A stretch of 64,000 nt of DNA from an uncultured Alphaproteobacteria bacterium (GTDB lineage: Bacteria > Pseudomonadota > Alphaproteobacteria > Rhizobiales > Hyphomicrobiaceae). Positions 18,145 to 62,773 of the stretch are shown one piece after another; the first letter of the stretch is position 1; every line of letters begins with the position of its first letter. Where the stretch lies: positions 3,520-67,519 of the forward strand of contig CAVWOY010000007.1 in assembly GCA_963756735.1 (NCBI GenBank), written 5' to 3'. The position numbers and the translations under genes were made by a program. The notes under the pieces are model-generated. The model was not told the DNA's origin. It did no database searches and was given only the letters and a program-made list of their open reading frames with translations.

Positions 18145-18148
18145 CCCG

Positions 18149-21100: not shown

Positions 21101-21729
21101 CTCTCCCCGGGCCTCGTGCCGGTGTAGTCGAGCACCTGCTGGTTGAACCAGTCGAGCCTGCCATCCGGCTTGGCCGACCAGACATGGTGCGGCATCGCGG
21201 CGGCAAAGGTGCGGAACTGCGCCTCGCTTTCGCGCAGCGCCTTCTCGGCCCGCACCCGCTCGGTAGTCTCCACCACGATCGCCAGCACGCCGGCTGGCTT
21301 GCCGTCTTCGTCGAGCAGGGGGCTGTAGTCGAGGTCGACCCACACGTCCTGCGGGCGGCCGGGCCGGTAGAGGACGAGGTGCTCGTCGCGGAAGGACAGC
21401 GTCTCCCCGCGCAAGCCCACTTCCATGACCCGGCGGTTGAGGTCGGCCACCTCGGGCCAGCCCTCCAGCACCTTGGAGCCGAGCAGCTGGGGGTGGCGCC
21501 CGCCGGCAAACACCGAGTAGGCATCATTGTAGATCATGATGCCGTCGCGCCCCCACAGCATGACCAGGGGGACGGGGGAGCCGAGCACGATATCGACCGC
21601 GGTCTTGAGGCTCTGCGGCCATTTGGCGATCGGGCCCAGCGGGGTGCGTGACCAGTCGAAGGCGCGAATGAGGGCGCCCATATCGCCGCCTCCGGCGGGA
21701 AATGTGCGGGAATCTCGTACAGCCAACAT
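18149..21729 (-). CDS. Multi-PAS hybrid sensor histidine kinase / response regulator; two apparent frame breaks (~19730, ~18830)
   Basis: ORFs 19237..21729, 18141..19961 and 18149..18823 join into one protein. Several PAS/PAC modules (HPDD..W.. repeats). H-box [14 protein letters not shown]. HATPase G-boxes DTGTGM, GTGLGLS. Receiver [19 protein letters not shown]. The start could instead be ATG 21681 ([10 protein letters not shown]). Confidence 0.85.
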
Positions 21730-21818
21730 GCGGTTCCCCTCGCGGCCGGCAAAGGTAACGCCTCAGAGCGGGAAGGGTTCCAAGGCTTGGCGGCAAATTT
21801 TTCGGGCGATGCCGGCCT

Positions 21819-22778
21819 TCAAGCTGTGACCCAGGAGATGCCTTTATGGGCGTCGGCCCCTGTCAGTCCGTGCAGCATCTCCATCAGCATCTCGGCGCTG
21901 TCGGCCAGCCGCGGGCCAGGGCGATTGAAATAGGCGTTGCCGTCGGCGAAATAGACGCGACCGGCGCGGACTGCAGAGGTACCAGCCCAGCCGGGCTTGG
22001 CCTGGAGCAGCGGCAGCTCCTCCAGGCAGCGGGCGAGGCCATAGCCGCATGGGGCCACAACGATCACCTCCGGGTCGGCGGCGCGCAGGTCCTCCCACTG
22101 CATCCAGTCGGAATGTTTGCCGGCCTCGCCGAACAGGTTGTGGCCGCCGGCGGCCTCGATCAGCTCGGGCATCCAGTTGCCGCCGGCCATCAGCGGCTCC
22201 ACCCACTCGATGAAGGCGACGCGGGGCCGGGAGAGGCCTGCGGTGCGTGAGCTGACGCTTGCGATGCGGGCCTGCATGTCGCGGATCAGGGCCTCGCCCG
22301 CGCCGACGGCATCGAGGGCGGCGGCGACGCGGCGGATGTCGGCGTAGACATCCGCGGTGGAGTCGGGCCTGAGCGAGACGATGCGCACCGGCTTGCCGGT
22401 CCAGGTGCAGGTGGCGGCCTCCACGTCGGCGAGGCTCACCGCGCACACCTCGCAGTGGTCCTGGGTGACGATCACGTCGGGCTCGAGTGCTTTCAGCGCG
22501 TCGCCATCGACGCGGTAGACGGAGAGGCCGTCGCGCACGATCTCGCGCACGCGGGCGTCGATCTCGGCGCTGGTGCCCTCGACCTTGAACTTCGCTTCCG
22601 TGAGCTGCGGCAGGTCGGCGACGTCGGGTGGGAAGTCGCACTCGTGGCTGCGGCCGACCAGCCGGTCGCGTCGCCCCAGCGCGCACACGATCTCGGTGGC
22701 GCTGGCGATCAGGCTGACGATGCGCGTGCCCCGTCTCCCCGCCTGCGGGGTGAGGGGCTGACGCTGGCTCTGGCGCAT
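21819..22778 (-). CDS. BtuF-like (class 8 periplasmic-binding fold) cobalamin/iron-siderophore binding-protein homologue
   Basis: RIVSLIASATEIVCALGRRDRLVGRSHECDFP..PDVIVTQDHCEVC..VAFIEWVEPLMAGGNWMPELIE. Candidate start ATG 22778. Lies in the same frame as the upstream ORF through a REP element. Confidence 0.7.
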   Translation of the reverse strand: MRQSQRQPLTPQAGRRGTRIVSLIASATEIVCALGRRDRLVGRSHECDFPPDVADLPQLTEAKFKVEGTSAEIDARVREIVRDGLSVYRVDGDALKALEPDVIVTQDHCEVCAVSLADVEAATCTWTGKPVRIVSLRPDSTADVYADIRRVAAALDAVGAGEALIRDMQARIASVSSRTAGLSRPRVAFIEWVEPLMAGGNWMPELIEAAGGHNLFGEAGKHSDWMQWEDLRAADPEVIVVAPCGYGLARCLEELPLLQAKPGWAGTSAVRAGRVYFADGNAYFNRPGPRLADSAEMLMEMLHGLTGADAHKGISWVTA

Positions 22779-24528: not shown

Positions 24529-26443
24529 TCAGCTCTTCGTCACTTTGAGCGAGAGGCTCACGCGCTGGATCGACGTCACGCTGTCGACGTTGAAGCGCAG
24601 GATGTCGCCGGCGGCGATCGAGGTGGTCCAGCCGGTGAGCGTCGCGTCCTGGGCCTTGGTGGCGGTCGAGATGGTGGGCGGCGCGCTGGCCGTGATGCTG
24701 TCGGCGTCGGTGGGCGGGAAGTTGGCGTAGGTGTCCTTCCAGATGTCGACCACGATCGAGCCCGTCTGGTCGGCCAGCACCGTGACCTGGTTGATGGTGC
24801 AGGCGAACGGAATTTCCAGGTCACCCTTGATGCCGGTGGTGATGGCCGAGCCGCCGCCGTCGATGACGAAGGTGAGGGTGGCCGTGCGCTGGTTGGCGGT
24901 TGCCTGCAGGCTGGTGCCGGAGAACTCCAGCCCGTTGGCCGGCGTCCAATAGGCGATGTTGCCGGCGCTGTCGTCGAAGAACAGGCCGCTGTCGGCGTTG
25001 GGGTCGATGGAGAGGGCCGCGATCTCGGCGAGCAGCTCGTCGAAGGCCTGCACGTCGGTGCCGATGGCCAGCCCGAGGTTGGCGCGGGCGCCTGCGGCGT
25101 CGCTGGCGCCGGTGCCGCCGTCGGCCACAGCCACGTCGCTGCCGCCGGCCTTGTAGATGGCGGCGCCGCCGTGGGTGACGAGCGCGCCGAGGTCGGCCGT
25201 GGGCGCGTTGTTGGCCGTCCAGGTCAGCACATCGACCCAGGCGGCGCCGTCGACGTCGCGCACCTTGATCCTGGCGGCGTGGCCTGCCGTCGCGCCGCCG
25301 ACGATGGCATCGCCGTTCTCGACGATGACATCGTTGCCGTTGCTCTCCAGATCGCCGCCGAGCTCCGGCGTCGTGTCCTCCACCACGTTGGCCAGTCCGC
25401 CAGCCACCGCCGCCAGCGAGCACCGTCTCTGTGCCGGCGTCGTCCTTTTGGTAGAGGCTCTTGTCGGTCTTGGCGTAGAGGCGGACCTTGCCGCTGGCGG
25501 GGGTGGCCGGTGCGCTGGCAGCCGGCAGGTCCAGGTACGCCGTGGCCGGCAGCGCCACGCGGCCGGTGCTGCGGTCGATCAGGATGGCCTCGTTCCAGGC
25601 CGAGCCGTCGGCGCTGACCTTGAAATGGAAATCGTCGTCGCCGGCGGTGCCCATCTCGGCGCGGCCGGAGAAGCCGGTCTGGAACAGCAGGCTTGCCGTG
25701 TCGCCGGCGGCGTTCTTGTTGATCTTGTGCTGATGGCCGGCGCCGGCATGATTGAAGAGCGAGGCGGCCGCGGCGATGGCGAAGCGGGTGGTGGCGTCGG
25801 CTGCAGCGTTGACGCCGAACAAAGCTGCCCGCGGGTGGCCCGTGCCCTTGCCGGCAAGCGTGAGGTCGATGTTGGTGTCGCCGCCCTCGGCGGCGATCTG
25901 CGGCGCGGTGCCGGTGGCGGCGTTGGTGACGCCGACCTGGTTCACGGCGCTCGCCGTCTTGTGGAAGACGATGTGCTCGTTGCCGGCATCGTCGGTGATG
26001 CCCGTGCCGTCGTCGAAGCCGATGCTATGGCCATTGGCATCGAGGTCGCCGCCCAGCTGGGGTGTGGTGTCCTCGACGACGTTGGCGAGGCCACCGCCGC
26101 CTCCACCGGCGAACTCGACCCAGGCCGAGCCGGTCCAGACATACAACTTGTCCTCGTCGGCGACCCAGGCCAGCCAGCCCTCGCGCGGGGCGTAGAACGC
26201 CCAGGCGCCGTCCTGGAAGGCCGCGATCTTGCCGGCTTGGCCCGCCCACGCCCCGGTAGGGCTTGCCGCTACGACGTAGCGGGCGCCCTCCGTGGGGGAG
26301 CCGGGTGGGGTGGCGAGGTCCTTGTCGAGCGCCATCAGCTGCACGACCGCGTCAAGGGTGCGCAGCGCCTCGTTGTGGGTGACGTGCTTTTGCGCCTGGG
26401 CGGCCACAATGAAGGGGAGGTTGAGATTGGTGCTGGCGTCCAT
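24529..26443 (-). CDS. DUF2793-type tail-fibre-like protein (~638 aa); frame break in the Gly-run near 25402
   Basis: Start ATG 26443: [68 protein letters not shown] (DUF2793 signature). Fibre-type [19 protein letters not shown]. Joined from ORFs 24821..26782 and 24529..25407. Confidence 0.75.
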
Positions 26444-26558
26444 CGTGCGCGTGCTCTCGAGCTGCAAAGCTTCTGCGAGCGCATTTGAACACGGGCTCAG
26501 GGGGGCGGGGATAAGCAAAAAAAGCGCTGAGGCGGGGGCCTGGATGGCGGCCAACGGA

Positions 26559-26591
26559 CAAAAAAAGAGCCGCCCTTTGGGCGGCTCAAAA
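26559..26591 (-). terminator. Rho-independent terminator for the 26727-27119 gene
   Basis: The stem gagccgccc/gggcggctc has loop tttg. On the minus strand it is followed by a T7 run (A-run 26559-26566 on plus). Confidence 0.65.
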
Positions 26592-26726
26592 GTTAACAGG
26601 GAGGCGTCAAACAGAGTGGACAGGCCACTCGGATCCAGATGGCTGGATAAGGTTAATTGTGCCCGAGATTGGATAACGAAGCGTAAAGACTGCCCCGGAA
26701 TATGCGTCGGCAGTCGAGACAGGAAA

Positions 26727-27119
26727 CTAGTTGCGCTTGCACAGATTGGCGGCCCGGACGACTGCCGCCTCGGGCGTCGCAAACTCGCCCATCAGCACGG
26801 GCTGCACCTGGCCGTAGGTCGCCTCCAGCCAGTCGCGCTGAAGGAAGGGCGCCATCGGATTATCTGCCGGGTGGTCGAGGATGATGTAGTGGGCCACCTT
26901 GCCCTTCATGACCCGAATGAGCGAGGTCTGCGTGCCGCCGAAGGGCGCGCGCTTGATCGTGCAGGGCTGGTCCGTGTCCTTGCCGGTGTTGGAGGCGATG
27001 GATTTCTTTTTTGGCGCGGGCTCGGAGACCATCTGCGGCCGCATCAATCTGTTGACGCCGCTCACCACCACCAGGATGGTGGCAGCAATTGCCAGCAGCC
27101 GAATTGCCTTGGGGTTCAT
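26727..27119 (-). CDS. Hypothetical exported protein
   Basis: MNPKAIRLLAIAATILVVVSGV signal/anchor. Intact 130 aa. No family recognised. Confidence 0.5.
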   Translation of the reverse strand: MNPKAIRLLAIAATILVVVSGVNRLMRPQMVSEPAPKKKSIASNTGKDTDQPCTIKRAPFGGTQTSLIRVMKGKVAHYIILDHPADNPMAPFLQRDWLEATYGQVQPVLMGEFATPEAAVVRAANLCKRN

Positions 27120-47192: not shown

Positions 47193-48808
47193 CTAGCCGC
47201 GCCGCTTCTTCGCCCTGAGATCGATGATGCCGGCGCGGTTGCGAGGGTCCTCGCCAGGGGTGAAGATCTGGGTCTTCTGCACCTTCTGCGTGCCCGTGGT
47301 CGGCAGCTTGTCGAGGAACAGCACCCAGCCCGGCGCCTTGAAGTAGGCGAGCTTAGCGTTGCACTGCTCGAACAGCGCCTGCGCCAGCGCCGCGTCGCCC
47401 TTGATGCCCGGCATCGGCACGACGCAGGCCAGCACCTCCTCCTCGCGCAGCTCGTCGGGCGCGGCCAGCACGGCCACCTGCGCCACCGCGTCGTGCGCCT
47501 GCAGCACCGCCTCGATCTCGGCGGCGGCGATGTTCTCGCCGGCTCTGCGAATGATGTGCTTCTTGCGGTCGACGAAGAACAGCATGCCGGAGGCGTCCTG
47601 GCGCACGACGTCGCCGGTGTGGAACCATCCGCCCCGCCAGGCTTCCTCGGTCGCCTTCTCGTTCTTGAGGTAGCCCGAGAAGAAGCCGTGGCGCGGCTTC
47701 TCCGCCGAGTGGCGCACGAGGAGCTCGCCTGGCGTGCCGGCGGGCACGTCGTTGTCGTCGTCGTCCACCACGCGCGCCTCGAAGCCCGGGAACGGCCGCC
47801 CGAAGGCGCGCGTGCCGACCATGCGCGGCTCGTGCGCGTCGCCGGTCACGCGTCCGGTCTCCGTCATGCCCCACAGCTCCATCATGGGAAAGCCGAAGCG
47901 CTCCTCGAAGGGCTTGTGCAGCTGCGGCTCGATGCCGGCGCCGAGGCCGAGGCGCACCTTGTGGTTGCGGTCGGCGGGGCCGGGCGGCTGGTTCAGCAGC
48001 ATGGGCGCGACGATGCCGAGGTAGTGGATGACGGTGGCGCCATGCGTGGAGACCTCGTGCCACCAGCGTGTCGGCGAGAAGCGCTCGGGCAGGATCAGCG
48101 TGTTGGCGGTCTGGATGGCCGCCGTCGACATGATGTTGAGGTGGTTGATGTGGAACAGCGGCAGCGGATTGTAGAACCGTTCCTGGCCGTTGCCGGATGT
48201 CCATCAATCCGCCGTGGCTCCAGATAGGTCTTGCCTGCATTCAGCGTGTAGAAGTTCGAATGCAGGCAGCCCTTGGGCCGGCCCGTGGTGCCCGAGGTGT
48301 AGAGCAGCGAGCACTCGGTCTCGAGGCCGGGCGGGCCGGGGCGCGGTGCTGGGCCCGAGGGCCGGGGCAGCTCGGCCGGCATGGCGTGCGCGTCCACCAC
48401 CGGCAGCGGCCTGGCGCGCTGGCTGGCGGCTTTGGCGACATCGGCGACGCGGTGCGGCAGCACCACGGCAAGCTCGGCGTCGCTGTGCTCCACGACATAT
48501 GCGATCTCGTCGTGGCGGTAGTCCGGGTTGATCGGCACGATGCCGCAGCCGAGCCCGTTGAGCGCCAGGTAGTGCAGGAGGAATTCGGGGCGGTTCTCCA
48601 GCAGGATGGCGACGCGGTGGCCGTGGCCATAGCCTGCCGCCGCGTAGGAAGCGCGCAACCGCTCGACCTCGGCCAGCGCGGCGCCATAGCTCACCTCGAT
48701 GCCGTCGGGTGACCAGTCGCGGTCGGCGCGCGCCGGCACGATCAGGAACGGGTGGGCGGCATTGGCGCGGGCGGTGTCGGCAAAGGTTTCCGCAACTGTG
48801 CTCGGCAT
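47193..48808 (-). CDS. AMP-dependent acyl-CoA synthetase/ligase; 1-2 frame breaks near 48170-48200
   Basis: LLYTSGTTGRPKG P-loop in ORF 48095..48898. ERFYNPLPLFH, WFHTGD and DRKKHIIRRAGENI in ORF 47193..48131. Confidence 0.85.
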
Positions 48809-49106
48809 GGGCGATGGTTTCCTCCGGCAGGGCGCTTTGGAGTGGCCCTTCCGCGCCGACGCTAGCCCAAGGCGCGCATCGGCGCGAGCGCCCAGCATTT
48901 ATGCGCCGCCTATGAACTAGCCGCGCCGGCCGGCTCGAATCTTTATGCATTTCTCTGCATCTCCATGGCATGCCGGATCGCGATGACATCGACAGGGCGT
49001 ATCACTATCCCAGTTCCGTTCTCGGTCGGGAGTTGGCTGGTGCCGGGGTTCTGGCTGGCGGTGGTGGTGGTGGCGCTGCTGCTCCTGCTGGCGGGCGAGG
49101 TAGGTT

Positions 49107-51587: not shown

Positions 51588-52511
51588 CTAGGGAGCGAGC
51601 CGCTTCAGGACGTCGTCCGCCGTCAGCTTCAGGTTCGGATTGAGGGCCTTGGCCTTGGCAAAGGCCGCCTCGGCCTCCCCGGTGCGGCCGAGCGCGCGCA
51701 GGATGTGGCCGTGCGTGTCGTTGCAATGGGCATGACAGAAGCGCACGGTCTCCACCGCCTTCTCGGCATCCTTCAGGGCGTCCTCGAGCCGGCCCGCCTT
51801 GAAATGCGCCCAGGCGCGGCCGTTGAAGTAGTTGTCGTCGCGAGGGTCGATCTCCAGCGCCTTTGTGAAGTCTTTGACGGCCTCGTCATACTTGCTCTGG
51901 AGAATCCAGGTGATGCCTCGGAAGCGATAGCCCTCGTCGTATTTGGCCCTCAGCTCCACGACCTTGGTGAAGTCCTTGGCGGCGTTGTCGAGGTCGGCGC
52001 TGACGAGGTGCGTGCGGCCGCGGCCGAAGTAGTTGTTGGCGTCGCCCGGGTCGATGCCGAGCGCCGTGTTGAAATCATCGATGGACTCTTTGTACTTGCC
52101 CAGCTCCCTGTAGGAGTCACCACGGTTGCGGTAAGCCTCATCCCATTTCGGCGACAGCTTAATCGCCTCGGTGAAGTCGCCGATGGACTTCGGTTGCATG
52201 CCCGCGGACCTGTGGGCGTCGCCGAGCACCCGGTAGGCGTTGGCAAGCCGCTGTCTCAGCCGGTCGTGGTCGGGACGTGTGGAGTGCAGGCCGACGTAGC
52301 GCTCCTGCAGCTGCACGCCGGTGGCGAACAGCGCCAACGCGTCCTTGCGATCCACGTCCAGCTGCCTGTTCACGAAGTCGTTGGCCCAGTTCACATACCT
52401 CCAATCGACCAGCGAGAACTCGCGGTCATAGGTGCTGCCCCCCTTGTCGAGCAACTGCAGCACCCGCGTCTGTGCCTGGTTGAGAATGCGCGCGTTCTCG
52501 GTGTTTCGCAC
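51588..52511 (-). CDS. TPR-repeat protein, downstream partner of the giant caspase-domain gene
   Basis: GTG start 52511, 55 nt after the upstream stop. At least 5 TPR units (AIKLSPKWDEAYRNRGDSY, ALGIDPGDANNYFGRGRTH, VVELRAKYDEGYRFRGITW, ALEIDPRDDNYFNGRAWAH..). Confidence 0.8.
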   Translation of the reverse strand: MRNTENARILNQAQTRVLQLLDKGGSTYDREFSLVDWRYVNWANDFVNRQLDVDRKDALALFATGVQLQERYVGLHSTRPDHDRLRQRLANAYRVLGDAHRSAGMQPKSIGDFTEAIKLSPKWDEAYRNRGDSYRELGKYKESIDDFNTALGIDPGDANNYFGRGRTHLVSADLDNAAKDFTKVVELRAKYDEGYRFRGITWILQSKYDEAVKDFTKALEIDPRDDNYFNGRAWAHFKAGRLEDALKDAEKAVETVRFCHAHCNDTHGHILRALGRTGEAEAAFAKAKALNPNLKLTADDVLKRLAP

Positions 52512-52566
52512 CAGGTTCTCGCTCGTCTCCAGCGCGGCGATGGCGAGCCTCCCGGCCAGCGTGACT

Positions 52567-55500
52567 TCAATCGGACTCCGCGGCCTGCGAGAGCTGCAGG
52601 TAGAGCTCGGCCCGCTTGGTCGCAGACAGCCTCTGCCTGGCGATTCCGAGCTGCGAGCCGAAGTGATCGGCGAGCTCCAGCAGCTTGGCTGTCGGCAGCA
52701 CCTCCTCGCGCTTCTTCTCGTCCAGGCGCTCGTTGAGGTCTACCACCGCCTTGGCATAGACGCCTGTCCGCAGCTGCTGGGCCGCGCCCAGAAACTGGAC
52801 GAAGGCCACGCGCGGGTTGCCGTGCGGGGTGCCGCCCGTGCCGGTGCCCCTGAGCACCAGCTCGTAGTGGCCACGCACCGCCAGCGTTGCCAAGCTGTCG
52901 GAGGCCTTCTTGTCGGTCAGCTCGTCGACGAGGCGCACGCCCTTGCCGATGGCCGACGAGAGATCCTCCGTGCCGCCGAGGGCGGCGACGATCTGGGGCC
53001 GCGTGTAGCCCTTGAGCGCGGCGGCGTCCTTTGCCCGCTTGGGATCGTTCAATCGCGGCCAGCACGCGCCTGGCGCTGTTGTCCGCATTTTCGAACACCT
53101 TGACGAGATCGGGCAGGGCCAGCCGGGCGGCGAGCTGGACACGGCGCGCGTGGATCGCGACCTCGATGGCCTCGATCGCGTCCTGACCCTGCACCAGCTT
53201 CTGCGGCTGGCGCCGGTCGCGCTGGGCCAGCAGCAGGCGGTTGGCAACGACATAGTTCTGAAGGGCGCTATCGAGGCGCTCCGTGCTGCCCATCGCCGAG
53301 CGCTCCAGCTCGTAGCCCAGCAAGGCGAAAGCCATGGGATCGCCGGCCTCGCTCAGCTCAGTCAGCTCGTCGGTGAGCTTGGCAACCCGAGCCGCGATAC
53401 TGGTGCATTGCAACGCCAAGCCTACCAAGGCCGGGGCTACGAAGCGGCCTCTGCGCATGGCCTGCGTGTAGAGCGCCAGCATCGCCGAGGCGCGGGCGCC
53501 GTCGCAGCGGATCGTTCCCGAGTCCCCGCCCTGTGCCGGCGAGCTTCTCTTCTCGCTCTCGCCCAGCTCACGGGCGATGAGCGCCAGGGCCAAGGGATTG
53601 CCAGCCGCCGCGTCGGTCAGAGCGAAAGCGATGGCGCGGCTCGGCAATTGCCGCTCCAGCGACCGGTAGGCGTGCTCGGAGAGCGCCAGCGCCCGCTGTC
53701 CAGGCGTCGAGAACTCCAGGAGAAGGCGCGAGCACTCGCGCTGATAGTTGGAGTTGGGGTCGCCGGCGCAGGCGGCGGCCGGGGTGTCGGGCACGACGGT
53801 GCCATCGGCCGGCAGGAACCAGTTGGCATGCACATCGCTGTCGGAGCGGGAGAGCCAGCGGGGGGTCAAAGCTTCCGCCATATAGGGAATCTTGTCCACG
53901 TCGGCCTCGAGCGTGACGGCGGGCATCACGATGTGCTTCAGGCCGACCACGGCGAACAACTCGCCGGTGGCGAGCGGCTGCAGGCCGCCGATCCTCTTGC
54001 TGGAACCCCCCGGCGCATACCAGTTGAGCAGCAGCCCCAAGCGGTTGTACGAGCGGATGCTGCTCTCGTCGTGGACGTGCAGCACCCGGTCGCCGATCGC
54101 CCACGCCAGGTCCTGGGCCGAGTTGAGCTTGGTGCGGGTATTGATGGTGATGGGTTGCGGTGCCTTGCTGGTCAGGTCCAGGCTCCAGATCTCGACGTGA
54201 CCCTCCTCGTAGGCGAGGAAGGCGCTGGAACCCTCATCGAGAAAGCCGAAAGCGCTGAGCCTGCCCTTGTCCGGGGCGATGCGGATGTCGGGCCGCTTGT
54301 TGCGGGCGTAGCTGGGATCATCGTGAAAATACGCGATACGGATCATGTTCTCGGATTCGATGCGGTACAGCCAGCCCGCCTTGCCACCGGTGCGCGCTTC
54401 CTGCCACTGCTCCCGATTGGGGTCGTGCACCGCGTAGACCGCTCCATCCATGGCGACCCTGACGAGGACGCGCAGCGACACCGACATCGTCGCTCTGGTG
54501 CCCGCGTCGCGCCGCTCCGGCCGGGAGGTGCCGGCCAGGACGAGATCGGCGTAGGGCACGCTCTCCTCGGGGTCGGGCGCGTTCACCCGCACCGGATCGC
54601 CCTTGAGAAGCCCGGTCTTGAGATCGATCGCGGCGACGAACGCCGCCGAGCGCAAATTGCCGGGCTCGGTTTCGAGCTCGGGCACGACCGCGAGCACAAG
54701 TAGCTGCCGGCGCGCAGGATCGAGCGCCTGCGTGACGAAGTCGACCGCCGGGGTACGAGGCTGCTGCCCGCGCCGCGTGAACCAGTCGGTGATCTGCCGC
54801 TCGATCTTCGCGACGGCCCTCGATGTGGAATCCGCGTCGCCCAGCTCCACCTCCATCAGGTCGCCGTGGTCGACGCCGTAGACCACGCGACCGTTCGCGC
54901 CCAACCACCTAATCAGATCGCATGCGTGGACACAGTCGCGCTCCTTGTGAAGGACCTGGTCGACACGGCGCTTCAGGACGCTGCGGCCTTGCGGGTTGGT
55001 GGCCGCGAAGATGACGCCGTTGGTGGGGGAGTTGAAGTCGAGGGTCTGCCGGTCGTAGTCCCGGTAGTAGATGTGTTCCAGCTCGTACCTGCCGTCCCGC
55101 AGCTTGATCTCGGAATGCTGGACGGTCCAGGACTTGTTCTTGTCGTCTGGCGGGTAGCGCAGCGTCAGCCTCTGTTGCTCGTCGACGTCGATCGAGGTGA
55201 TCGCCGGGTCGTTCCAGGTGTGCAGCGCCTTGAGCGAGAACGTGCCGTCCTGCGTGCCGAGCGCGTACAAGGACATTCCTCCGGCGGCGTGGGTGATGAT
55301 GCGCTCCTTGGCGAGGCGAAGGAGCGGCGGTGTCGGTCCCGGCCAACGGTCGAGCTTGCTCGTGCCCTGCAGGCGCTGCCAGCCGCTTCCCACCTCGGTG
55401 CCGAGGCGCGCTGCGAACGCGGCGCCGTCGGGCTCCGCCCACACGCACAGGCTCTCGTAGCAGCTGATGGCAAAGCCAGTGCCCATGGCGTTGTTCCAGC

Positions 55501-58372
55501 TCGGCCGGCCGGCTGCGCGCGGCAGCCTGATGGCCTTGCCCTCCAGCGCGCCTTGCGCATCGAAGCGCCAGCCCAGAACGTCTCCGTTCTTGTTGACGGC
55601 CGCCAGCATCAGGCGTGAGCCGACCGTGCCGAAGGCGATCGCCCGCACGTCGTCCTCGGCATAGACGTCGTAGTAGTCGGAGTTCCTGCGCAGCGAGAAC
55701 AGCTCCGCATCGCCGCGCTCCGAGAGCAGCGCCGCATGCGATCCGTCCGGACTGGTGATCAGCGTGCGTACGTTGTCGGCATAGCGCGGCTGCCGCCGGA
55801 CAAGGCTTCCCGTGTTCGCATCGGAAAGGATGAGCCCCTTGTCCTGACCATCCTCGGCCCACACGATGTAGCGGCCGTCCGGCGTGAAGGCGGCCTTGAC
55901 CGAGTTGGTTGCGATCGATCCCGCCAGCTCGACGTCGGCTTGCCGCCTCATCAACTCGACCACGACGTTGGCAAAGTCGACGCCGAGCACGGGATCCATC
56001 GCCTTGCCCGGCTTCTTGTCGTCGTACTCGTACTCGAAATCGACCGCGCGGTTGCGCTCCTTGAAGATGCGCCGGGCTGCGAGCGCCAGCGCGCGCGCGT
56101 CATCGGAGCTTCCCGCCTCGAGCTTGTCGCGGGCCTTGGCCAGCAGCAGCTTGAACTGGCCCGTGAATGCGCCGTCCCGCCATTCGTTCAGCAGGTTGTT
56201 CTGGTCCCGGACCAATGTGACCACGTTCCAAAGGCCGAACACGACGCCGCACAGGATGACGGCGGCTGCTGTCGCCGCCCGGGACCACCACTTTACGCGG
56301 AGCGCCCTCATGCGTTCTTTCTCGCGCGCGTCCCTTATCTCCTTGAGCTTGGTATCGGCGGCGCCGCGGAACCGGCTGTCGGGGTACTGGGAGATGAAGC
56401 TCTCGAGCAGCTGCTCGCTGTTGCTGGAGCTCGTCAGCGTCCAGTATTCCTCCTCGCGCTCCCTGGCGGTCTCCTTGCGCTGCCGGTCCAGCTCCTCGCG
56501 GGTCAGAACTCGATGCTCGGCGCTGCGGTTGGACTGCTTGAAGGCGAAGTGGTCGACCATCAGGGACGACTGGTCCCATGGCAGCTGCCGCCCCTCGGTC
56601 TTCTCGTTCACCTCCTTGCGCACCACGCGCATCATCTGGCCGACGTCTTGATCCTCGGCAATGATGTGCTGGAGCAGCGAATGGGCAAACGGGCTGTGCT
56701 GGCCGGCCGTGCCGTCGCTGGCGGTGGCGCCGGGCTGGGTGGAGAAGGCGATGAAGGTTCCGGCCGGCGCCCCGAGGTTGGCAAAGCCCCTGCGCAGCGA
56801 CCGCGACAGCGAGCGCCCCTGGAACGGGTTGTCGCGGCAGCAGTCGAGAATGATGATGCCGACCTTGCCCGATTCCTCGAGCGGGTCGAGCAAGGTGCCG
56901 AGCGAGACCGAGCTCTGGCGCAGCTCCGGCATCGTGCCGGGGTTGCAGTCGACCGGCAGCACGTAGTTCTCGCCGTCGATCTGTACGCCGTGGCCGGCAT
57001 AGAAGATGAGGCCGACGTGGCAGGCGGTCAGGTCGTCCTTGAACTTGACGATCGACTGCACCATGGAGTGCTCGGTGGCGTCGCGCAGCAGCGTGACGGA
57101 GAAGTCGAGCGATTTGAGCCGGTCGGCGATCGCTTCGGCATCGTGGGTGGGGTTGGTGAGCTGCGATGCGGCGGTGTAGGCGCCGTTGCCGATGACGAGG
57201 GCGATGCGCTTGGAGCCGGCCGCGATGTGGCGCACCTGCACCGGCGCGGAGGAGGGCGCGCTCTTGAGGATGCCGAACTCCAGGCGCGCATCCATGTCGG
57301 GCGAGTAGATGCCGTCGGCGAAGGAAAGCTTCTTGCGCTGCAGGGCGGTGAGCGCCCTGGTCTCCTGGGCACCGAAAAGCCCGGTGGGCTGCAGCCCCAG
57401 CTTGCGCTGCAGGCTGCCGACCAGCTCGCCGCGCGAGCCGTGCCTGAGCCGCGTCAGGCGCTCGAGCACGATGCCGGAGTTGCCGACGGCCCCCGTGCGC
57501 CGCAGCTTGGAGGCGATCGCGGCCTCGACGCCGGTCACCAGCACGTAGTCGAAGCGCTTGCCGTTGTCGCCGCGGCTGCCTAGTCCGGCCGCGTTGCGGA
57601 ACTCGGCCCATTCGCCGGTGTGGCCGGCGTCGAACCCGCCGCGCACGGTCTGGCATCCGCGCGAGCGGAACATCCTGCCGCTGAAGGAGGGATGCAGGTT
57701 GGCGTGCGGGATCGACGGATCGTAGATGTCGGTGGTGTCGTAGCGCACGTCATAGATGGTGCGCAGGACGGCGACGCGCTCCTGCTGGGCCTTGTCGTGG
57801 CCGGTGCCGAGCCGGAGGCAGCCGGGGATCTGATGCTTGCCGTGCGCGCCGACGTAGTAGGGGTAGCAGCCCGTCGGCAGCAGGTTGGTCCTGGGATCGC
57901 CGCGGCCGCGCTGGAAGAAGTCGTGCACGAAGGCGTACCACGGCACGGTGGAGCCGACGAAGCCCGAGATCAGCTTGGTGCCGGTATTGTAGACGCCGAT
58001 GACGCAGCGGAACTCGCGATGGTCGGGGCGGGTGAGGCGCAGGCGCAGGCCGGGGCCGCTGGCGCTGCCGCCGGTGGCGAGCATCGCGCCGCGCAGCCCG
58101 AACAGGATGCGATCCTCCTCGCGCGTGGGCTCGAAGCGGTTCTCGCGGATGATGAGCTCGAGGTCGGCGCCGGTGAACTCGAACTCCTCCTCGGCAAAGC
58201 CGGCGTCGAGGTGGCGGTAGTCGGGGTGCTGCTTGTCCTCGGCCCAGCTGACGTCGTCGGCCGCGAAGGCCTGGGCGCCGCGCGGCGGCGCGGTGGCTTC
58301 CTGGCACTCCTCCTCGGGCTCGTACCACCACTCCAGCTCGACATCCTCGCCCGTACTCAAATCTCTGGTCAT
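52567..58372 (-). CDS. Giant (~1,930 aa) single-pass membrane protein: YkuD-like signature + PG-binding repeat + caspase (peptidase C14) domain + TM + beta-propeller-like region + helical tail; one frame break near 53050
   Basis: ORF 52391..58372 is continuous for 5.3 kb. Its real C-terminus continues in ORF 52567..53253 (LNDPKRAKDAAALKGY...LSQAAESD). Motifs: HPSFSGRMFRSRGCQTV (57653-57706); PG_binding_1-like GSRGELVGSLQRKLGLQPTGLFGAQETRALTALQ; caspase KRIALVIGNGAY..., catalytic FYAGHG (His ~56990) and IILDCCRDNPF (Cys ~56837-56842); TM AATAAAVILCGVVFGLWNVVTLV (56210-56284); FTPDGRY/TSPDGSH PD40-like strands. Confidence 0.8.
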
Positions 58373-58900
58373 GCCATTTCCCGTACGCTGCTATGGCAAT
58401 TGCTCGCGAGGGCCAGCCGTCTGCCACCAACGACCTGCGGTGCTGTCAGTGCCGGCGAGTTCAACAAGTCATGGAGTGGAGCGCATCGCACAAAACTGCA
58501 CCAGCATGCCCAAACTATGGGGTGAGAGCGTGGCATGGCCGCCGTTGCTCGGCAAACTGTGTTGTCCAAAGCACAATCCTCGCGTCTCCTGCATGCGGTT
58601 TGCGGGCATTGATGCTCCTGCCGCATGATCGGCCGCCACCGACGGTTGAAAGCGCCACCTTACCGGCGTGGACGCCTGCTGCTTGTGCCGGTCGGCACAG
58701 CCGCGGCCGCCGCGCCCGCGTTCTTATTTTTCTGCCACACCCGCGACGGTAGAAACTGCTGCATCTGCGTGACGGCCTCGGCAGGCCGCGCCGTCAACAG
58801 CCCCGGCTTGTGCCCCCACCCAGAATCAGGATTGCTGCGCGGCTATGCACCGGCGCCTCGCGGCAACCGTCCGCGCTCCAGCCACAGGGGAGCAACCTTC

Positions 58901-59425
58901 ATGATCTTCAACAAGAAGCCAGAGGAGAGCGGCAGTCTGGCGGCCACCGCGCGGGCGTTCGGCGGCACGGCGCCGGCGGATCAGGGGGCGCTGCTCAACC
59001 GCAAGCCGAACCTCGGGCCCTCGCGCGCCATCATCGACGCGAGCCTGCAGATCGACGGCAACCTGACGACCGAGGGCGAGGTGCAGGTCGACGGCAAGAT
59101 CAACGGCGACATCCGCTGCGCGCACCTGACCATCGGCCGCGACGCCGTCATCATGGGCGACATCACGGCGGAGGAGATCGTGGTGCGCGGCAAGGTGACG
59201 GGCATCATCCGCGCCAACCGCGTGATCCTGCAGGACGGCGCGCAGGTGGAGAGCGAGATCATCCAGAGCAAGCTCACCATCGAGGAAGGCGCCAACTTCA
59301 AGGGCATGATCCGCGACCAGACCGAGCCGCATGTGGCGGCACTGCAGGACATGGCGGCGGAGATGAAGGCGAAGGCCGGCGCCGCCGCGGACGAGGTGCC
59401 GGCAAAGAAGGCGCTGGCGGGCTAA
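58901..59425 (+). CDS. Bactofilin (DUF583) family cytoskeletal protein
   Basis: ATG 58901 (MIFNKKPEES). Beta-helical repeat pattern IDGNLTTEGEVQVDGKINGDIRCAHLTIGRDAVIMGDITAEEIVVRGKVTGIIRANRVILQDGAQVESEI. Confidence 0.85.
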   Translation: MIFNKKPEESGSLAATARAFGGTAPADQGALLNRKPNLGPSRAIIDASLQIDGNLTTEGEVQVDGKINGDIRCAHLTIGRDAVIMGDITAEEIVVRGKVTGIIRANRVILQDGAQVESEIIQSKLTIEEGANFKGMIRDQTEPHVAALQDMAAEMKAKAGAAADEVPAKKALAG

Positions 59426-59930: not shown

Positions 59931-60933
59931 CAGTGGTAGCCCGCCTTCGGGTCGACCTTGCCGCGGAACACCCAGTAGGCGAGCGCGGTGTAGCCGAGGA
60001 TCAGCGGGATCAGCACACGGCGCCGACCAGCAGGAAGCTCAAGCTGTTGTCGGGCGCGGCCGCGTGCCAGATGGTGATCGAGGGCGGCAGGATGTAGGGG
60101 TAGAAGCTGATGCCGATGCCGATGAAGGACAGCACGAACAGGGCGATGGCAGCGAGGAACGGCATCGCATCGCGCTCCCTGGCCAGAGCCCCCAGAACAG
60201 GGCGAGCGCGGCGAGGGCCACGAAGATCGGCACGGGGGCGGAGTAGATCACCGCCGGCCAGGCGAACCAGCGCTGCATGAAGACAGGATCGAGGAACGGC
60301 GTGATCAGGCTGACGAGGCCGATGAGCGCCAGCGTCGCCAGCGCCGGTGATCCAGGCGAAGCGGCGTGCACTGGCCTGCAGCTCGTCCGTGGTCTTGAGG
60401 ATCAGCCAGGTGGCGCCCAGCAGCGCGTAGCCCACCACCAGGGCGGCGCCCGGTGAGCAGGCTGAACCAGGTGAGCCAGTCCCACCAGCCCCCGGCATAG
60501 GCGCGGTTGGCGACCGGGATGCCCTGCACCAGGGCGCCGAGCGCGATGCCTTGTGATAGTGCGGCGACCGCCGAGCCGCCCGCGAACGCCCAGTCCCACA
60601 CGGGCTTCCGCGCACCGTGCGCCAGCGGAACTCGAAGGCGACGCCGCGGAAGACGAGGCCGAGCAGCATCAGCGTGATCGGCACGTAGAGCGCCGGCATC
60701 ACGACGGCGTAGGCCAGGGGGAACGCGGCCATCAGGCCGCCGCCGCCCAGGACCAGCCAGGTCTCGTTGCCGTCCCAGACGGGGGCCACCGAGTTCATGG
60801 CCACGTCGCGCTCGTGGTCGTCGGCCAGGAACGGGAACAGGATGCCGATGCCGAGATCGAAGCCGTCGAACAGCACGTAGGCCAGCACGGCGAAGGCGAT
60901 CAGTCCGGCCCAGATGAAGGGGAGATCGATCAT
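59930..60933 (-). pseudogene. cydB: Cytochrome bd-type quinol oxidase subunit II; frame broken about 5 times (pseudogene or low-quality sequence); no cydA upstream
   Basis: MIDLPFIWAGLIAFAVLAYVLFDGFDLGIGILFPF..NSVAPVWDGNETWLVLGGG..GVAFEFRW, then segments in ORFs 60305, 60010 and 60039. Terminal VLIPLILGYTALAYWVFRGKVDPKAGYH. Confidence 0.75.
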
Positions 60934-60985
60934 GGCCGATCCTAGCACGCGTGCCTGGCTGCGTTGAGGGCCTTGGGCGCTGCCT

Positions 60986-62773
60986 CTAGATCGGCCAGAC
61001 CCACGGCACCATCACGATGGCGATGGCATAGATCAGCACCGTCAGCGGTGCGCCGACCTTGAAGAAGTCGGAGAACTGGTACTTGCCCGGCCCGTAGACC
61101 ATGAGGCACGAGGGCTCGAGCGGCGTCAGGTAGGAGCAGCTCGCGGCCACCGCCACCATCATGGCGAAGGCGCGCGGATCGACGCCGAGCTGCAGGCCGG
61201 TCTGCATGGCGATCGGCAACACCACCAGCGCGGCGGCCTGGTTCGACATGGGCTGGGTGAGCGCCACGGTCAGGATGAAGAAGCAGCTGAGCAGGGCGTA
61301 GCGGCTGTCGGCGCCCACGATGGCGATGAGCTGCTGCGCGAGGATACTTGCCCGCGCCGCTCGCCTCCATGGCCGCGCCCAGCGACAGCAGCGAGCCGAT
61401 CAGGATCAGCGCCTTCCATTCGACCTGCCGGTAGGCCTCCTCGGGCGAGAGGCAGCGCGTCAGCCAGCATCAGGAACGCGCCGCCCAGCATGGCCACCGG
61501 CAGCGCGGCGAGCTTGAAGGTCGCGGCCACGATCGCCAGCGCGAAGATGGCCGCGGCGAGCGGCGCGCGGCGAGCGATTGAGCCGCCCCTGCTCCACGCC
61601 GCCGAAGATGTTGAACAGGTTGCCCTGCTCCAGCGCCTTGACGTCCTCGGGCGTGCCCTGCAGCAGCAGCACGTCGCCCATGCGCAGGCGCGCCGAGCTG
61701 ATGGTCTCGGGCACCCGGCCCGCGCGATGGATGGCCAGCACCTGCAACCCGTAGCGCTCCTTGAAGCCCAGGCTTCTCAGGCTGTAGCCGATCAGCGGCG
61801 AGCGCGGCAGCAGCACGCCCTCCACGATGGTGGGCTTCTCCTTTTCTTCCTTCGTCTCGTCCTCGTCGGCCAGGTGCACATCGGCCTTGAAGTCGAGGCC
61901 CTCGATGTCCTTGATCTTGAGGAGGTCCGCGCGCAGGCCCTCGATCAGCAGCTCGTCGCCCGCCTGCAGCTCGATCTCGGCGAGCCGCTTCTCGCCGCGA
62001 TGGTCTCGCCGCCGCGCATCAGCTTGACGACCGACAGCCCGGCGCCGGCCGCGATCTTGGCGGCCTTCGAGCGATCTTGCCGACGAGCGGCCCGTCCTCG
62101 ATCACCACGACATCGGCCTGGTACTTGCGCTCGCCGATCGTCTCCTCCGGCTTCTGGTCCTCGCGCTGCGGCAGCAGGCGCACGCCGATGAGCCAGACAT
62201 AGAGGATGCCGACGATGGCGATGGGAATGCCGACCGGCGCCAGCTCGAACATGCCCATGGGCGGCTGCTGGTAGCGGGTGAGCAGATCGCTGACGACCAG
62301 GTTGGTCGAGGTGCTGATGAGCGTGACCGAGCTGGTCAGGATCGACGCGAAGGCGAGCGGCAGCAGGAACCGCGACGGGCTCGCGCCGATCTTGGCGGCG
62401 TAGCCGATCACCAGCGGCACGAAGAACGCGGTCGCCGCCGTGTTGCTCATGAAGGCGGAGACGACGGCCACCGAGACCATGATGACCGGCAGGAAGATCG
62501 CCGGGTTGCGCCCGGCCAGGTCGAACACGTAGCGGCCGGCGATCTCCACCACGCCGGTCTGGATCAGGCCGGCCGACATGATCAGCAGGCCCAGGATCAT
62601 GATCACGGTGTCGCTGCCGAAGCCGGCGAAGGCCTTGTCGGCGGCAGCAGTCCGGTGGCGATGACGGCCAGCATCACGCCCAGCGCGACGACGTCGGCCG
62701 GCATGCGGTCCCAGGCGAACAGCAGGACGGCGCCGCCGAGAATCGCCAGGCAGATCGCAATGTCAGGTGTCAT
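60986..62773 (-). pseudogene. SLC13/DASS-type permease with TrkA-C domains; at least 5 frame breaks
   Basis: MTPDIAICLAILGGAVLLFAWDRMPADVVAL (start 62773); GSDTVIMILGLLIMSAGL..; TrkA-C-like GVLLPRSPLIGYSLRSLGFKERYGLQVLAIHRAG; C-terminus ..CSYLTPLEPSCLMVYGPGKYQFSDFFKVG. Confidence 0.75.

Follow-up and report, generated by a model that had tools for sequence, protein, structure and literature searches.

Domain architecture of the caspase locus

On the minus strand of the window (the whole 64,000-nucleotide stretch of DNA analyzed here, from an uncultured alphaproteobacterium), a gene of about 2,260 codons (58372..51588) is read successively in frame A (58372..53048), frame B (53046..52582), and frame C (52580..51588). 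Residues 6 to 2260 of its product are colinear with two intact ORFs, P0002 (2,300 aa) and P0003 (2,262 aa), which derive from two metagenomes and served as the reference for gene structure, and the coding signal (GC3) moves from A to B to C, switching at both break points. The encoded domains follow one another in the order lysin-like Cys/His domain, PG_binding_1-like segment, peptidase C14, coiled coil, transmembrane (TM) helix, propeller-like arrays, alpha-solenoid, and TPRs. An earlier note on this DNA had considered the architecture undescribed, and the profile searches agree: neither Pfam nor NCBIfam holds a model for the N-terminal core or gives a hit to it, and PADLOC returns only a generic caspase match.

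The Cys/His core (aa ~35-300, ~270 aa; 57473..58270, minus strand) is supported by an alignment of 27 sequences and an AF2 model of pLDDT 91.7. H54, H118, C123, H177, and H227 are invariant among these 27 diverse relatives, and C240 is retained in at least 90% of them. The H227-x12-C240 motif (LHPSFSGRMFRSRGC), from which a likeness to YkuD had been proposed, thus stands, but the YkuD identity does not: there is no Pfam YkuD hit, the family profile reaches only the PG-binding part of 4lpq and not its catalytic domain, and the best Foldseek match to a YkuD fold is Csd6 (E=2.3, prob 0.04). The domain does share with L,D-transpeptidases of the YkuD type the His-then-Cys order, the S-x-G-C motif (S237-R-G-C240), and the association with PG_binding_1, but it is larger and carries four additional invariant His/Cys residues. 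Foldseek found no fold match to the core in the PDB.

The core is better described as lysin-like, a reading that rests on the confident model, on phage matches, and on the company that the module keeps. Its fold matches BFVD phage proteins of 190-260 aa, including one called “Lysin” (E=4.8e-8 to 1e-3), and the PHROG family phrog_3000 matches its relatives end to end (E=2.5e-10). phrog_3000 itself has no assigned function, and tblastn found no phage sequence matches. The core is present in at least 621 protein clusters (E<=1e-30), PG_binding_1 always comes after the module, and relatives combine the module with Phage_lysozyme, GH19, Amidase_3, Muramidase, M15_4, and C70 domains or with Trypsin_2 plus TPR-S, with FHA, and with S8. 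As in phage endolysins, a core followed by a PG_binding_1-like bundle lacks a signal peptide; unlike them, the unit is joined to a caspase and a membrane receptor and does not lie in a lysis cassette.

The PG_binding_1-like three-helix segment (aa ~305-370; 57263..57460, minus strand), likewise recognized earlier, was recovered by the family profile, which finds PG_binding_1 of solved structures (4lpq, 3bkh, 1lbu, and others) at E=6e-5 to 1e-3, and by Foldseek matches to 6tci, 5tv7, and 1lbu (prob 0.95-0.97, rmsd 1.6-2.6 Å). Pfam does not report PG_binding_1 for the window protein alone at E<=1; relatives exceed the PF01471 cutoff.

The peptidase C14 (caspase/orthocaspase) domain (aa 388-604; 56561..57211, minus strand) matches Pfam PF00656 over profile positions 1-228 of 233 (E=1.4e-36; 126.7 bits, cutoff 21.4). 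Its closest solved relative by sequence is the MALT1 paracaspase (E=3e-13 across the p20-like core), and both catalytic contexts, already pointed out in the earlier note, align: FYAGHG and ILDCCR with the YAGHG and LDMCR (LDxCR) motifs of MALT1. H461 (56990-56992, minus strand) and C512 (56837-56839, minus strand) are identical in the window protein, P0002, and P0003, and the His/Cys dyad is, judged from these alignments, intact. The kinship with MALT1 is limited to the catalytic domain; the window protein is bacterial and has neither a death domain nor Ig domains.

Downstream of the caspase lies a charged helical/coiled-coil linker, recognized from sequence composition (aa ~611-696; 56285..56542, minus strand), which carries a weak BamD/YfiO-like helical hairpin (YfiO match, E=0.2). 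Beyond the TM helix, a beta-rich, propeller-like region (aa ~825-1480; 53933..55900, minus strand) consists of two arrays with a helical insert between them. The PD40/WD40-like strands suspected there correspond to weak WD40/PD40-like Pfam signals around aa 823-940 and to a beta-rich region in the AF2 ectodomain model, and the suspected helical tail corresponds to the helical region that follows it. The best Foldseek matches of this model combine tandem propellers with a solenoid (E about 1e-10). Because its mean pLDDT is low (51.7), “double propeller” is used as a provisional, model-based description. Two close Cys pairs, C971/C976 and C1147/C1151, are invariant in 5/5 sequences of the propeller-like region. 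Solenoid helices begin at aa ~1492 in the AF2 model, and the alpha-helical solenoid (aa ~1490-2040; 52251..53905, minus strand) contains both frame switches, across which the alignment with P0002 and P0003 continues. The C-terminal array of ~5-6 TPRs (51612..52250, minus strand) is matched by Pfam TPR_1 (E=1.1e-35) and TPR_2 (E=2.6e-35).

Divergence of the ectodomain and genomic context

The two halves of the protein differ in conservation. Identity to P0002, the closest ortholog, is 82% in the N-module and 90% in the caspase, compared with 41% in the propeller and 45% in the solenoid; likewise, identity to the L002 protein drops from 78% across the N-terminal 816 aa to 37% in the C-terminal part. 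Neighboring genes are 82-95% identical. P0005, which shares the upstream flank of the window gene, carries WD40 repeats of the canonical type beyond its TM helix, and among relatives the ectodomain is interchangeable (WD40, PAN, or window type). In a paralog with the C-terminal half of the window protein, TIR replaces the caspase. These comparisons show, at the level of sequence, that propeller and solenoid evolve fast or are swapped and that the effector half is conserved. Together they speak for a sensor-effector modularity, although relaxed constraint, and not an arms race, could also explain the fast divergence of the ectodomain.

The genomic context is less suggestive of conflict. The earlier note had seen in this domain combination the grammar of conflict systems and had raised the possibility of a defence-island-like neighborhood; the modular, sensor-effector-like composition is borne out, but the gene has metabolic genes on its flanks, the locus is conserved in relatives, and no defence-island or mobile neighbors were found there, which counts against a conflict role. 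The protein might instead serve housekeeping surveillance or remodelling of the envelope. Besides the stable chromosomal setting, this is favored by a bactofilin gene divergently upstream in the window and by the position of the lysin-like module on the cytoplasmic side, where only peptidoglycan precursors and recycled fragments exist. We regard such a role as unlikely, and we think the same of its particulars, namely, that the envelope is a docking site for the periplasmic repeats, that the lysin-like and PG-binding-like parts bind recycled muropeptides or precursors, and that the caspase cleaves a signalling or cell-wall factor in a regulated manner. A core function is contradicted by an ectodomain family of which only 5 members were found among 5.8 billion protein clusters, and the hypervariability and exchangeability of the ectodomain point the same way. 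Furthermore, the TIR-bearing paralog adjoins a CHAT protease, an integrase, and IS66, and the bactofilin neighbor is not kept in L001 or L002.

Origin of the frame breaks

The gene had been described as open for about 5.3 kb and interrupted once, near 53050. The first statement holds, as true coding in frame A ends near 53048, ~5.3 kb from the start; the minus-strand ORF (58372..52391, 1,993 aa) continues beyond this point only as out-of-frame read-through, which makes up its last ~220 aa. Homolog alignment and coding signal reveal not one but two +1 switches on the minus strand, from A to B at 53033..53070 (near 53047) and from B to C at 52567..52598 (near 52581).

If the frameshifts are real, the window copy is a pseudogene, recently decayed and yielding at most the 1,993-aa product with its nonsense tail. 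The two breaks lie within 480 nt of each other, and both fall on the rare 8-mer CGATTGAA (3 copies per 64 kb), at 53048-53055 within the first switch and at 52566-52573 at the second; moreover, costly death-effector genes are frequently lost. We nevertheless consider decay quite improbable, since a strong coding signal and homology are kept in all three frames. The breaks are most likely indels of long-read assembly and not biology, for three reasons: (i) at least three further frame breaks occur in two other, unrelated genes of the window, a hybrid histidine kinase gene divided among three frames and an AMP-binding gene divided between two; (ii) L002 and L006, which come from MAG assemblies of the same (long-read) kind, break at positions unlike those of the window; and (iii) the JGI metagenome copies of the gene are unbroken.

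Membrane topology

A single TM helix (aa ~697-721; 56210..56284, minus strand), located by the earlier note and confirmed by hydropathy (peak 2.32), is predicted by simple hydropathy and charge rules to be oriented N-in/C-out. We infer from sequence features that aa 1-696 are cytoplasmic and that the repeat half of ~1,540 aa is periplasmic. K/R residues (4-7) are abundant in the N-flank of the helix, both in the window protein and in relatives sharing the caspase-TM or TIR-TM junction; the TIR paralog is ordered TIR, coiled coil, TM, and then the C-terminal region shared with the window protein; PAN domains are placed after the TM helix in relatives; and the invariant close Cys pairs lie in the C-terminal half. 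The lysin-like module is generally signal-less: among 187 module-bearing proteins, only one has a signal-peptide-like N terminus and six have a TM helix upstream of the module, and the window protein itself begins with an acidic N terminus and no signal peptide. The proposal that a transmembrane split is combined with cell-wall-directed modules is therefore upheld for the presence of both, but not for a periplasmic placement of the latter, which are signal-less and predicted to lie on the cytoplasmic side.

PG_binding_1 and lytic domains normally reach their substrate outside the membrane, and in known conflict systems the WD40/TPR sensors usually reside in the cytoplasm (PMC7159879). Both facts would suit the reverse orientation, in which the lysin-like, PG-binding, and caspase parts are periplasmic on the wall and the propeller/solenoid/TPR half is a cytoplasmic sensor. 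This orientation is very unlikely, however, because established Sec/YidC rules bar export of a 696-aa N-terminal domain by a downstream TM helix, and the positive-inside counts and the other features listed above all favor N-in.

A single gene rather than a two-gene system

In the window assembly, a stop at 52567 is followed, after an apparent 55-nt gap, by a GTG-started 307-aa ORF (52511..51588) that holds the TPR matches. The TPR content of this ORF is as first described (Pfam E about 1e-35). The arrangement had been taken as a two-gene locus in which the giant caspase protein works together with a TPR partner translated on its own, but this is highly improbable, as the false stop and the false gap are products of the second frame switch. 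The TPR frame extends upstream of its GTG as SPIEVTLAGRLAIAALETSENL, which aligns inside the intact P0002 and P0003; the coding signal continues across the apparent gap, where no promoter-like or terminator-like site was found; and frame breaks are frequent in the window. When relatives were checked for co-inheritance of the two parts, the TPRs proved not to be a separate gene but the C terminus of one ORF in P0002, P0003, and P0062 (the L002 ORF). These intact fused orthologs also rule out a two-gene arrangement as the ancestral state. From this colinearity, the frame-switching coding signal, and the featureless gap, we conclude on sequence grounds that the locus is one gene and that the “TPR partner” is its C-terminal domain.

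Least probable of all is that the protein is exported as a polymorphic toxin or polyvalent lytic effector and reaches competitors via a dedicated secretion system: N-module relatives do occur in signal-less giants stacking Amidase_3, Muramidase, C70, and M15_4, but genes for secretion systems, trafficking domains, and an immunity gene are all absent from the vicinity of the window gene, and the internal TM helix and 1,540-aa repeat domain better suit a resident membrane protein.

Proposed mechanism and relation to known systems

We infer a sensor-effector function for the window protein. Induced proximity is the established mode of activation of caspase-class proteases such as MALT1. In the window protein, the periplasmic repeats would bind a variable ligand, e.g., an invader or envelope-damage cue; binding would cluster the receptors, and the proximity of the clustered chains would switch on the caspase, a mode shared with other proteases of the caspase family. 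The active caspase would cut cytoplasmic targets and may also release or activate the lysin-like module, which, resembling a phage endolysin retained in the cytoplasm, might then attack the cell's own wall or wall precursors and lead to growth arrest or lysis. Counted against this mechanism is the predicted cytoplasmic location of a peptidoglycan-directed module, which would need a path to its substrate.

Several features recall protease-containing conflict systems, in which TPR-S, FHA, caspase, or trypsin modules occur and peptidoglycan-attacking effectors have been predicted (PMC7159879). The effector is swapped between TIR and caspase, and N-module relatives carry Trypsin_2 plus TPR-S, FHA, and S8. 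Unlike those systems, the window protein has no NTPase (STAND, MoxR, or GTPase), vWA domain, or operon partners and is a stand-alone, membrane-spanning single chain. With repeats outside, a single TM helix, and either a death-protease or, in the paralog, a TIR domain inside, it is laid out like animal Toll-like receptors, by analogy only; the architectures are alike, and homology of the ectodomains is not claimed.

The closest parallels come from a survey of prokaryotic metacaspases joined to WD40, TPR, or PG-binding domains, in which WD40 and TPR are the most frequent partners and PG-binding domains occur in 1.6% (PMC3501461). Like these multidomain metacaspases/orthocaspases, the window protein combines a C14 domain with an intact dyad and WD40-like/TPR repeats in one chain, and like the metacaspase-CHASE2 protein of that survey, with its predicted extracellular receptor domain and cytoplasmic protease, it has a TM helix between a protease predicted to be cytoplasmic and a receptor-like domain on the outside. 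It differs from the surveyed proteins in its N-terminal lysin-like Cys/His domain, for which Pfam has no model, and in its ectodomain, whose 1,540 aa of propeller, solenoid, and TPRs form a very rare and divergent unit, hypervariable and also present in a TIR protein. With about even confidence, we propose that this chromosomal gene encodes a bitopic, receptor-like orthocaspase of the inner membrane that acts as a single-chain sensor-effector. The protein is best read as a rare, membrane-spanning variant of the multidomain bacterial orthocaspases.

A single gene across three reading frames

The giant gene (window positions 58372 to 51588, −) is one gene, a single unit whose coding sequence passes through three reading frames of the assembly (here, frames A, B, and C). 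The ORF in frame A runs from 58372 to 52391 (−; 1,993 aa), and its final ~220 residues are Arg/Ala/Gly-rich nonsense. Translation of the other frames shows that meaningful sequence resumes in frame B at about 53046, continues to a stop at 52567, and then proceeds in frame C. The latter holds a 307-aa “TPR ORF” (GTG at 52511, stop at 51588, −). Frame C is also open and meaningful 5′ of this GTG, where it reads ...SPIEVTLAGRLAIAALETSENLVRNTENA..., a stretch that can be aligned to the interior of two intact single-ORF homologs from metagenomes (ELAGRLAIAALETSEDLP in P0003 and TTLAIAALDKSEDLP in P0002). A GC3 frame plot, which is independent of homology, gives the same frame path as translation: the coding signal quits frame A near 53033 and occupies 53070 to 52567 in frame B and 52598 to 51588 in frame C. 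In a tblastn search against the window, P0002 matched as three colinear pieces in three frames. The repaired product has ~2,260 aa and full-length identities of 57% with P0002 (2,300 aa) and 40% with P0003 (2,262 aa).

An earlier note on this DNA had described a giant caspase protein, recoverable after a single frame break near 53050, and a separate TPR partner gene starting 55 nt downstream. The break near 53050 exists, but the description was incomplete, as there is a second +1 break near 52581, and both the apparent 55-nt gap and the partner gene are artifacts of it. In relatives, the TPRs are not encoded separately either: they are fused in one ORF in P0002, P0003, and P0062 (the ORF of the related locus L002), and the split in the window is a frame switch. 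A genuine two-gene system is thus very improbable. The public NCBI/ENA record of the protein (P0001; 1,993 aa) corresponds to the frame A ORF, including ~220 aa of out-of-frame read-through; because this gene call overlaps the true C-terminal coding frames, the public protein is wrong at its C terminus. Frameshifted long-read metagenome-assembled genomes (MAGs) can make a false operon out of one giant gene.

Origin of the frame breaks

The evidence points to both breaks being assembly indels, since other genes in the 64 kb are broken, the related loci L002 and L006 break elsewhere, and the JGI copies are intact. A hybrid histidine kinase gene (18141 to 21762, −) extends over three frames, which encode, in order, PAS repeats, PAS plus HisKA, and HATPase_c (from profile position 34) plus Response_reg, indicating two more frameshifts in the assembly. 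Likewise, an AMP-binding (acyl-CoA-synthetase-like) gene (47193 to 48898, −) is split by another frameshift into two overlapping ORFs covering profile positions 16 to 194 and 232 to 377 plus the C-terminal domain. The closest genomic relative, L002, belongs to an uncultured alphaproteobacterium whose MAG comes from the nanopore-based Microflora Danica (“MFD”) set, and its copy of the giant gene breaks near aa 817. The L006 locus, which carries a TIR paralog, breaks at two other places, and both JGI metagenome copies are intact. That the window copy is a real pseudogene, as two frame breaks in one gene might suggest, is accordingly improbable.

A possible additional frameshift lies at 24529 to 26791 (−), where two open frames overlap and the coding signal passes from one to the other near 25470; a DUF2793 domain is encoded in the upstream one. 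Three copies of the 8-mer CGATTGAA are present in the 64 kb (about 1.5 expected by chance), at 52566 to 52573 (−), 53048 to 53055 (−), and 21922 to 21929 (+), and the first two coincide exactly with the two frame switches of the giant gene. Its presence there may reflect a base-calling context (e.g., a methylation motif), coincidence, or something biological. Programmed +1 frameshifting at this 8-mer was set aside because the phases differ between the sites, site 1 lacks an in-frame stop, and unrelated genes are broken too.

Caspase domain and PG_binding_1-like bundle

In the repaired numbering used from here on, a complete Peptidase_C14 domain (PF00656) occupies aa 388 to 604 (E = 1.4e-36; 126.7 bits against a cutoff of 21.4; profile positions 1 to 228 of 233). 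The alignment with MALT1 pairs H461 (in FYAGHG) with YAGHG and C512 (in ILDCCR) with LDMCR; both residues are invariant among the window protein, P0002, and P0003. The C14 domain with both catalytic contexts, which the earlier note had read from the sequence, is thereby borne out, and the window protein is a member of Peptidase C14 (caspase/orthocaspase, clan CD), a predicted protease with an intact dyad. A charged helical linker (aa ~611 to 696) follows.

Upstream of the caspase lies a small bundle (aa ~305 to 370). Pfam gave no PG_binding_1 match at an E value of ≤1 for the window protein alone, while two relatives (P0199 and P0102) reach 31 bits with PF01471 against a cutoff of 23. The family profile matches solved PG_binding_1 domains (E = 6e-5), and Foldseek agrees (probability, 0.95 to 0.97; root mean square deviation, 1.6 to 2.6 Å), so that the PG_binding_1-like segment noticed earlier holds up. 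By profile and modeled fold, the bundle is assigned to PG_binding_1. Its binding of peptidoglycan is putative; matrix metalloproteinases use this fold as a pro-domain.

An N-terminal Cys/His lysin-like module

The bundle is the second part of a module whose first part is a conserved core at aa ~35 to 300, delimited by a 27-sequence alignment. Its invariant residues include H54, H118, C123, H177, R204, H227, and an STVP motif (141 to 144); D215 and C240, the latter within S237-x-G-C240, are retained in at least 90% of relatives. Neither Pfam nor NCBIfam has a model for the N-terminal 387 aa, and Pfam searches with ten shorter relatives gave only marginal PG_binding_1 matches. An AF2 model of the module from the 27-sequence alignment is confident (pLDDT, 91.7; pTM, 0.91). 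In a Foldseek search of the PDB, the core matched nothing at an E value of <0.3, only the small helical domain after it being matched. In contrast to the PDB, BFVD, a set of predicted viral structures, gave six matches at E values of ≤1e-3 (4.8e-8 to 1e-3) over ~220 to 235 aligned columns. Five of the targets are small phage proteins (190 to 260 aa) with a probability of 1.00 and a target TM-score of 0.54 to 0.61. One match is named “Lysin,” which is the depositor's name and not a tested function, and another is a GH19-containing phage protein; “lysin-like” is used here as a prediction.

At the level of profiles, 10 of the 27 family members match phrog_3000 (PHROG label, “unknown function”; best E = 3.6e-11), the window copy lying above an E value of 0.01. 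Relatives P0048 and P0049 align with this profile end to end (positions 10 to 203 of 209; E = 2.5e-10). Searched by tblastn, 50,697 phage genomes yielded no match to either of two core versions used as queries, so the phage link is structural and HMM level only.

In a profile search covering 1.84 billion cluster representatives, the module turned up in 621 proteins at an E value of ≤1e-30 and in 2,647 at ≤1e-10, and every name recovered for the sampled members was “hypothetical protein.” The module may be N-terminal, internal, or C-terminal and is sometimes present twice in a protein. Its partners include caspase, Trypsin_2 plus TPR-S, subtilase S8, and FHA domains, as well as the lytic domains Phage_lysozyme, GH19, Amidase_3, Muramidase, Peptidase_M15_4, and Peptidase_C70. 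By crude hydropathy rules, 187 Met-starting module proteins comprise 1 with a signal-peptide-like N terminus, 6 with a transmembrane (TM) segment upstream, 55 with one downstream, and 125 with none, counts which suggest that the module acts like a signal-less endolysin-type unit. Among seven individual relatives (P0016 to P0020, P0049, and P0054), some have two tandem lysin-like modules, and others are poly-lytic giants, signal-less proteins of 1,100 to 1,830 aa that combine Amidase_3, Muramidase, Peptidase_C70, the module, and M15_4.

The proposal that this region resembles an L,D-transpeptidase (YkuD) catalytic domain did not survive: there was no Pfam match (E ≤ 1), no match to the catalytic domain, and no YkuD fold. 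When the module profile was searched against all PDB sequences (E ≤ 10), L,D-transpeptidase 4lpq was matched only in its PG_binding_1 part, and Foldseek found no YkuD-fold match in the PDB at an E value of <2 (Csd6, 4xzz: E = 2.3; probability, 0.04; root mean square deviation, 11 Å). The likeness is confined to the short S-x-G-C within the conserved H227-x12-S237-R-G-C240, and a short motif alone is not proof of homology. In YkuD, the His-Cys spacing is 14 to 17 residues, longer than in the window protein. A pattern search for a YkuD gene as comparator in the retrieved DNA returned only a junk-frame match.

The module thus represents a sizeable family without a Pfam or NCBIfam model, consisting of a ~270-aa Cys/His domain after which a PG-binding-like bundle always comes. 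With its confidently predicted fold, structural relatives that are phage proteins only, and strong tie to lytic enzymes and proteases, it gives enzymologists a concrete target and may hold new lysin chemistry.

Predicted membrane topology

The single TM helix claimed at aa ~697 to 721 was located there. The window protein lacks a signal peptide, and its N terminus is acidic. It and ten relatives share the caspase-TM or TIR-TM junction; in all of them, Lys/Arg number 4 to 7 among the 15 residues on the N-terminal side of the TM helix and 1 to 3 among the 15 on the C-terminal side, with one exception at 5. PAN domains, which are extracellular modules, follow the TM helix in P0007 to P0011. In the TIR paralog at L006 (P0063), the order is TIR, coiled coil, TM helix (aa 186 to 204), and the same ectodomain, i.e., the repeat half after the TM helix; TIR enzymes require cytosolic NAD+. 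Two invariant close Cys pairs in the repeat half (C971/C976 and C1147/C1151) fit an oxidizing compartment. These five features favor a topology in which the effector half would be cytoplasmic and the repeat half periplasmic. The cell-wall-directed modules of the earlier proposal would then lie on the predicted cytoplasmic side. The reverse topology, which would put them in the periplasm, runs against all five features and is quite unlikely, and an exported toxin is the least credible reading of all.

The repeat half, a predicted ectodomain

The TM helix is followed by helices (aa ~730 to 810), two beta-rich arrays with weak WD40/PD40 signals (aa ~825 to 1105 and ~1210 to 1480), an alpha-helical region (aa ~1490 to 2040), and five to six TPRs (aa ~2040 to 2255). 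The TPRs, recognized already in the earlier reading, are unequivocal in Pfam (TPR_1, E = 1.1e-35 over 5 stretches; TPR_2, E = 2.6e-35 over 6 stretches). The WD40/PD40 signals are below threshold (E of ~1e-3 in the window protein; 5e-5, plus PD40 at 2e-3, in the TIR paralog), and WD40 proteins match ~10% of the ectodomain region. An AF2 model of aa 730 to 1775 from a 5-sequence alignment is poor (mean pLDDT, 51.7; one 160-aa stretch at 70 to 88), and its best Foldseek matches, all of them proteins that join tandem propellers to an alpha-solenoid (e.g., Utp and IFT-A subunits; E of ~1e-10), are thus a hint of fold class only. This type of ectodomain is very rare, with five members found in database searches (the window protein, P0002, P0003, L002/P0062, and L006/P0063). 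Further database searches, with a single sequence and with a profile, gave no new family members; they missed even P0002 and P0003, indicating that the word-index step is imperfect.

Divergence and genomic neighborhood

The two halves diverge at different rates. Between the window protein and P0002, identity is 82% in the N-terminal module, 90% in the caspase, and 65% in the linker plus TM helix, compared with 41% in the propeller, 45% in the solenoid, and 61% in the TPRs. Compared with L002, identity is 78% over the first 816 aa and 37% over the remainder.

The downstream flank (CMD, Amidohydro_2, and AMP-binding genes) is common to the window and the related loci L001 and L002 (79 to 95% protein identity), and an upstream xanthine-dehydrogenase-like flank is common to L001, L002, and the contig of P0005. 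The upstream side of the window differs, having bactofilin and cytochrome bd genes; because this flank is absent from L001 and L002, a rearrangement boundary lies beside the start of the giant gene. The bactofilin gene (58625 to 59425, +) is divergent upstream of the giant gene and is followed by the cytochrome bd oxidase genes (60010 to 62762, −). P0005 (JGI 3300056388 contig) keeps the N-terminal module, caspase, and TM helix at 46% identity and has canonical WD40 repeats after the TM helix; set against L001/L002, this ortholog suggests that the sensor half was replaced while the locus stayed common to them.

At L006 (5070 to 13395 of ENA ERZ25039602 contig_31164), the frame-broken paralogous gene encodes TIR, coiled coil, TM helix, and propeller-solenoid-TPR, and its neighbors are a 570-aa CHAT/Peptidase_C25-like protease, a separate TIR gene, an integrase, a resolvase, and IS66 genes. 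This context is mobile and conflict-like, whereas the window locus lacks such a context. Overall, the effector half is conserved, the sensor half diverges fast or is exchanged, and effectors are swapped, a combination that is the signature of sensor-effector conflict proteins.

The locus of the giant gene itself is stable and non-island. Scans for tRNAs, promoters, and terminators gave nothing informative. PADLOC-DB v2 yielded a single match, to its generic “caspase” model (E = 5e-13), and the neighbors are metabolic genes; a defense-island-like neighborhood, for which the earlier note had suggested a check, was not found. A housekeeping role in surveillance of the envelope or of peptidoglycan recycling would suit such a setting; set beside the conflict-type signature of the protein, we consider it unlikely, though not far-fetched.

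Comparison with known systems and possible mode of action

Among known proteins, the multidomain prokaryotic metacaspases/orthocaspases come closest; their fusions with WD40, TPR, PG-binding, and membrane-receptor parts are documented (PMC3501461). Peptidoglycan-attacking effector domains and the swapping of protease and TIR effectors are themes of bacterial conflict systems (PMC7159879). Unlike the STAND/NLR-type and vWA-MoxR systems described there, the window protein has no central NTPase; Pfam and NCBIfam searches found no NTPase domain (NACHT/NB-ARC, MoxR, or GTPase) in it or its neighbors. Nor did the tests place it in YkuD, in a two-gene system, or in any PADLOC system. No published description of this architecture was found in the literature. 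What is new is the fusion of a caspase with an unannotated lysin-like domain family, a rare hypervariable ectodomain in common with a TIR protein, and, if the topology is as predicted, the placing of wall-directed modules on the cytoplasmic side.

We regard the chances as evenly balanced that the window protein is a single-chain transmembrane sensor-effector. A ligand would bind the periplasmic repeats, the protein would cluster upon binding, and its caspase would be activated by proximity. This protease might then cleave cytoplasmic targets, possibly including the linker to the lysin-like module, and cell death or a growth stop would follow. The module could act on cytoplasmic wall precursors or, like holin-dependent endolysins, on the wall after a membrane breach. 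A more specific version, which we put forward only tentatively, is a single-chain transmembrane receptor of the innate immune type. Its hypervariable periplasmic propeller/solenoid/TPR ectodomain would sense invaders or envelope attack, and its cytoplasmic death modules would be interchangeable between lineages (TIR in one, caspase plus a new Cys/His lysin-like enzyme in another). The lysin-like domain would then be a previously unrecognized enzyme family (at least 621 clusters) that kills from inside via wall precursors or via the wall after membrane damage.

The two-gene headline fails and the ectodomain family is tiny; the architecture and the domain family merit follow-up. If the sensor-effector reading is true, one bacterial polypeptide would link recognition in the periplasm directly to caspase or TIR effectors in the cytoplasm, a possible outside-in death pathway.
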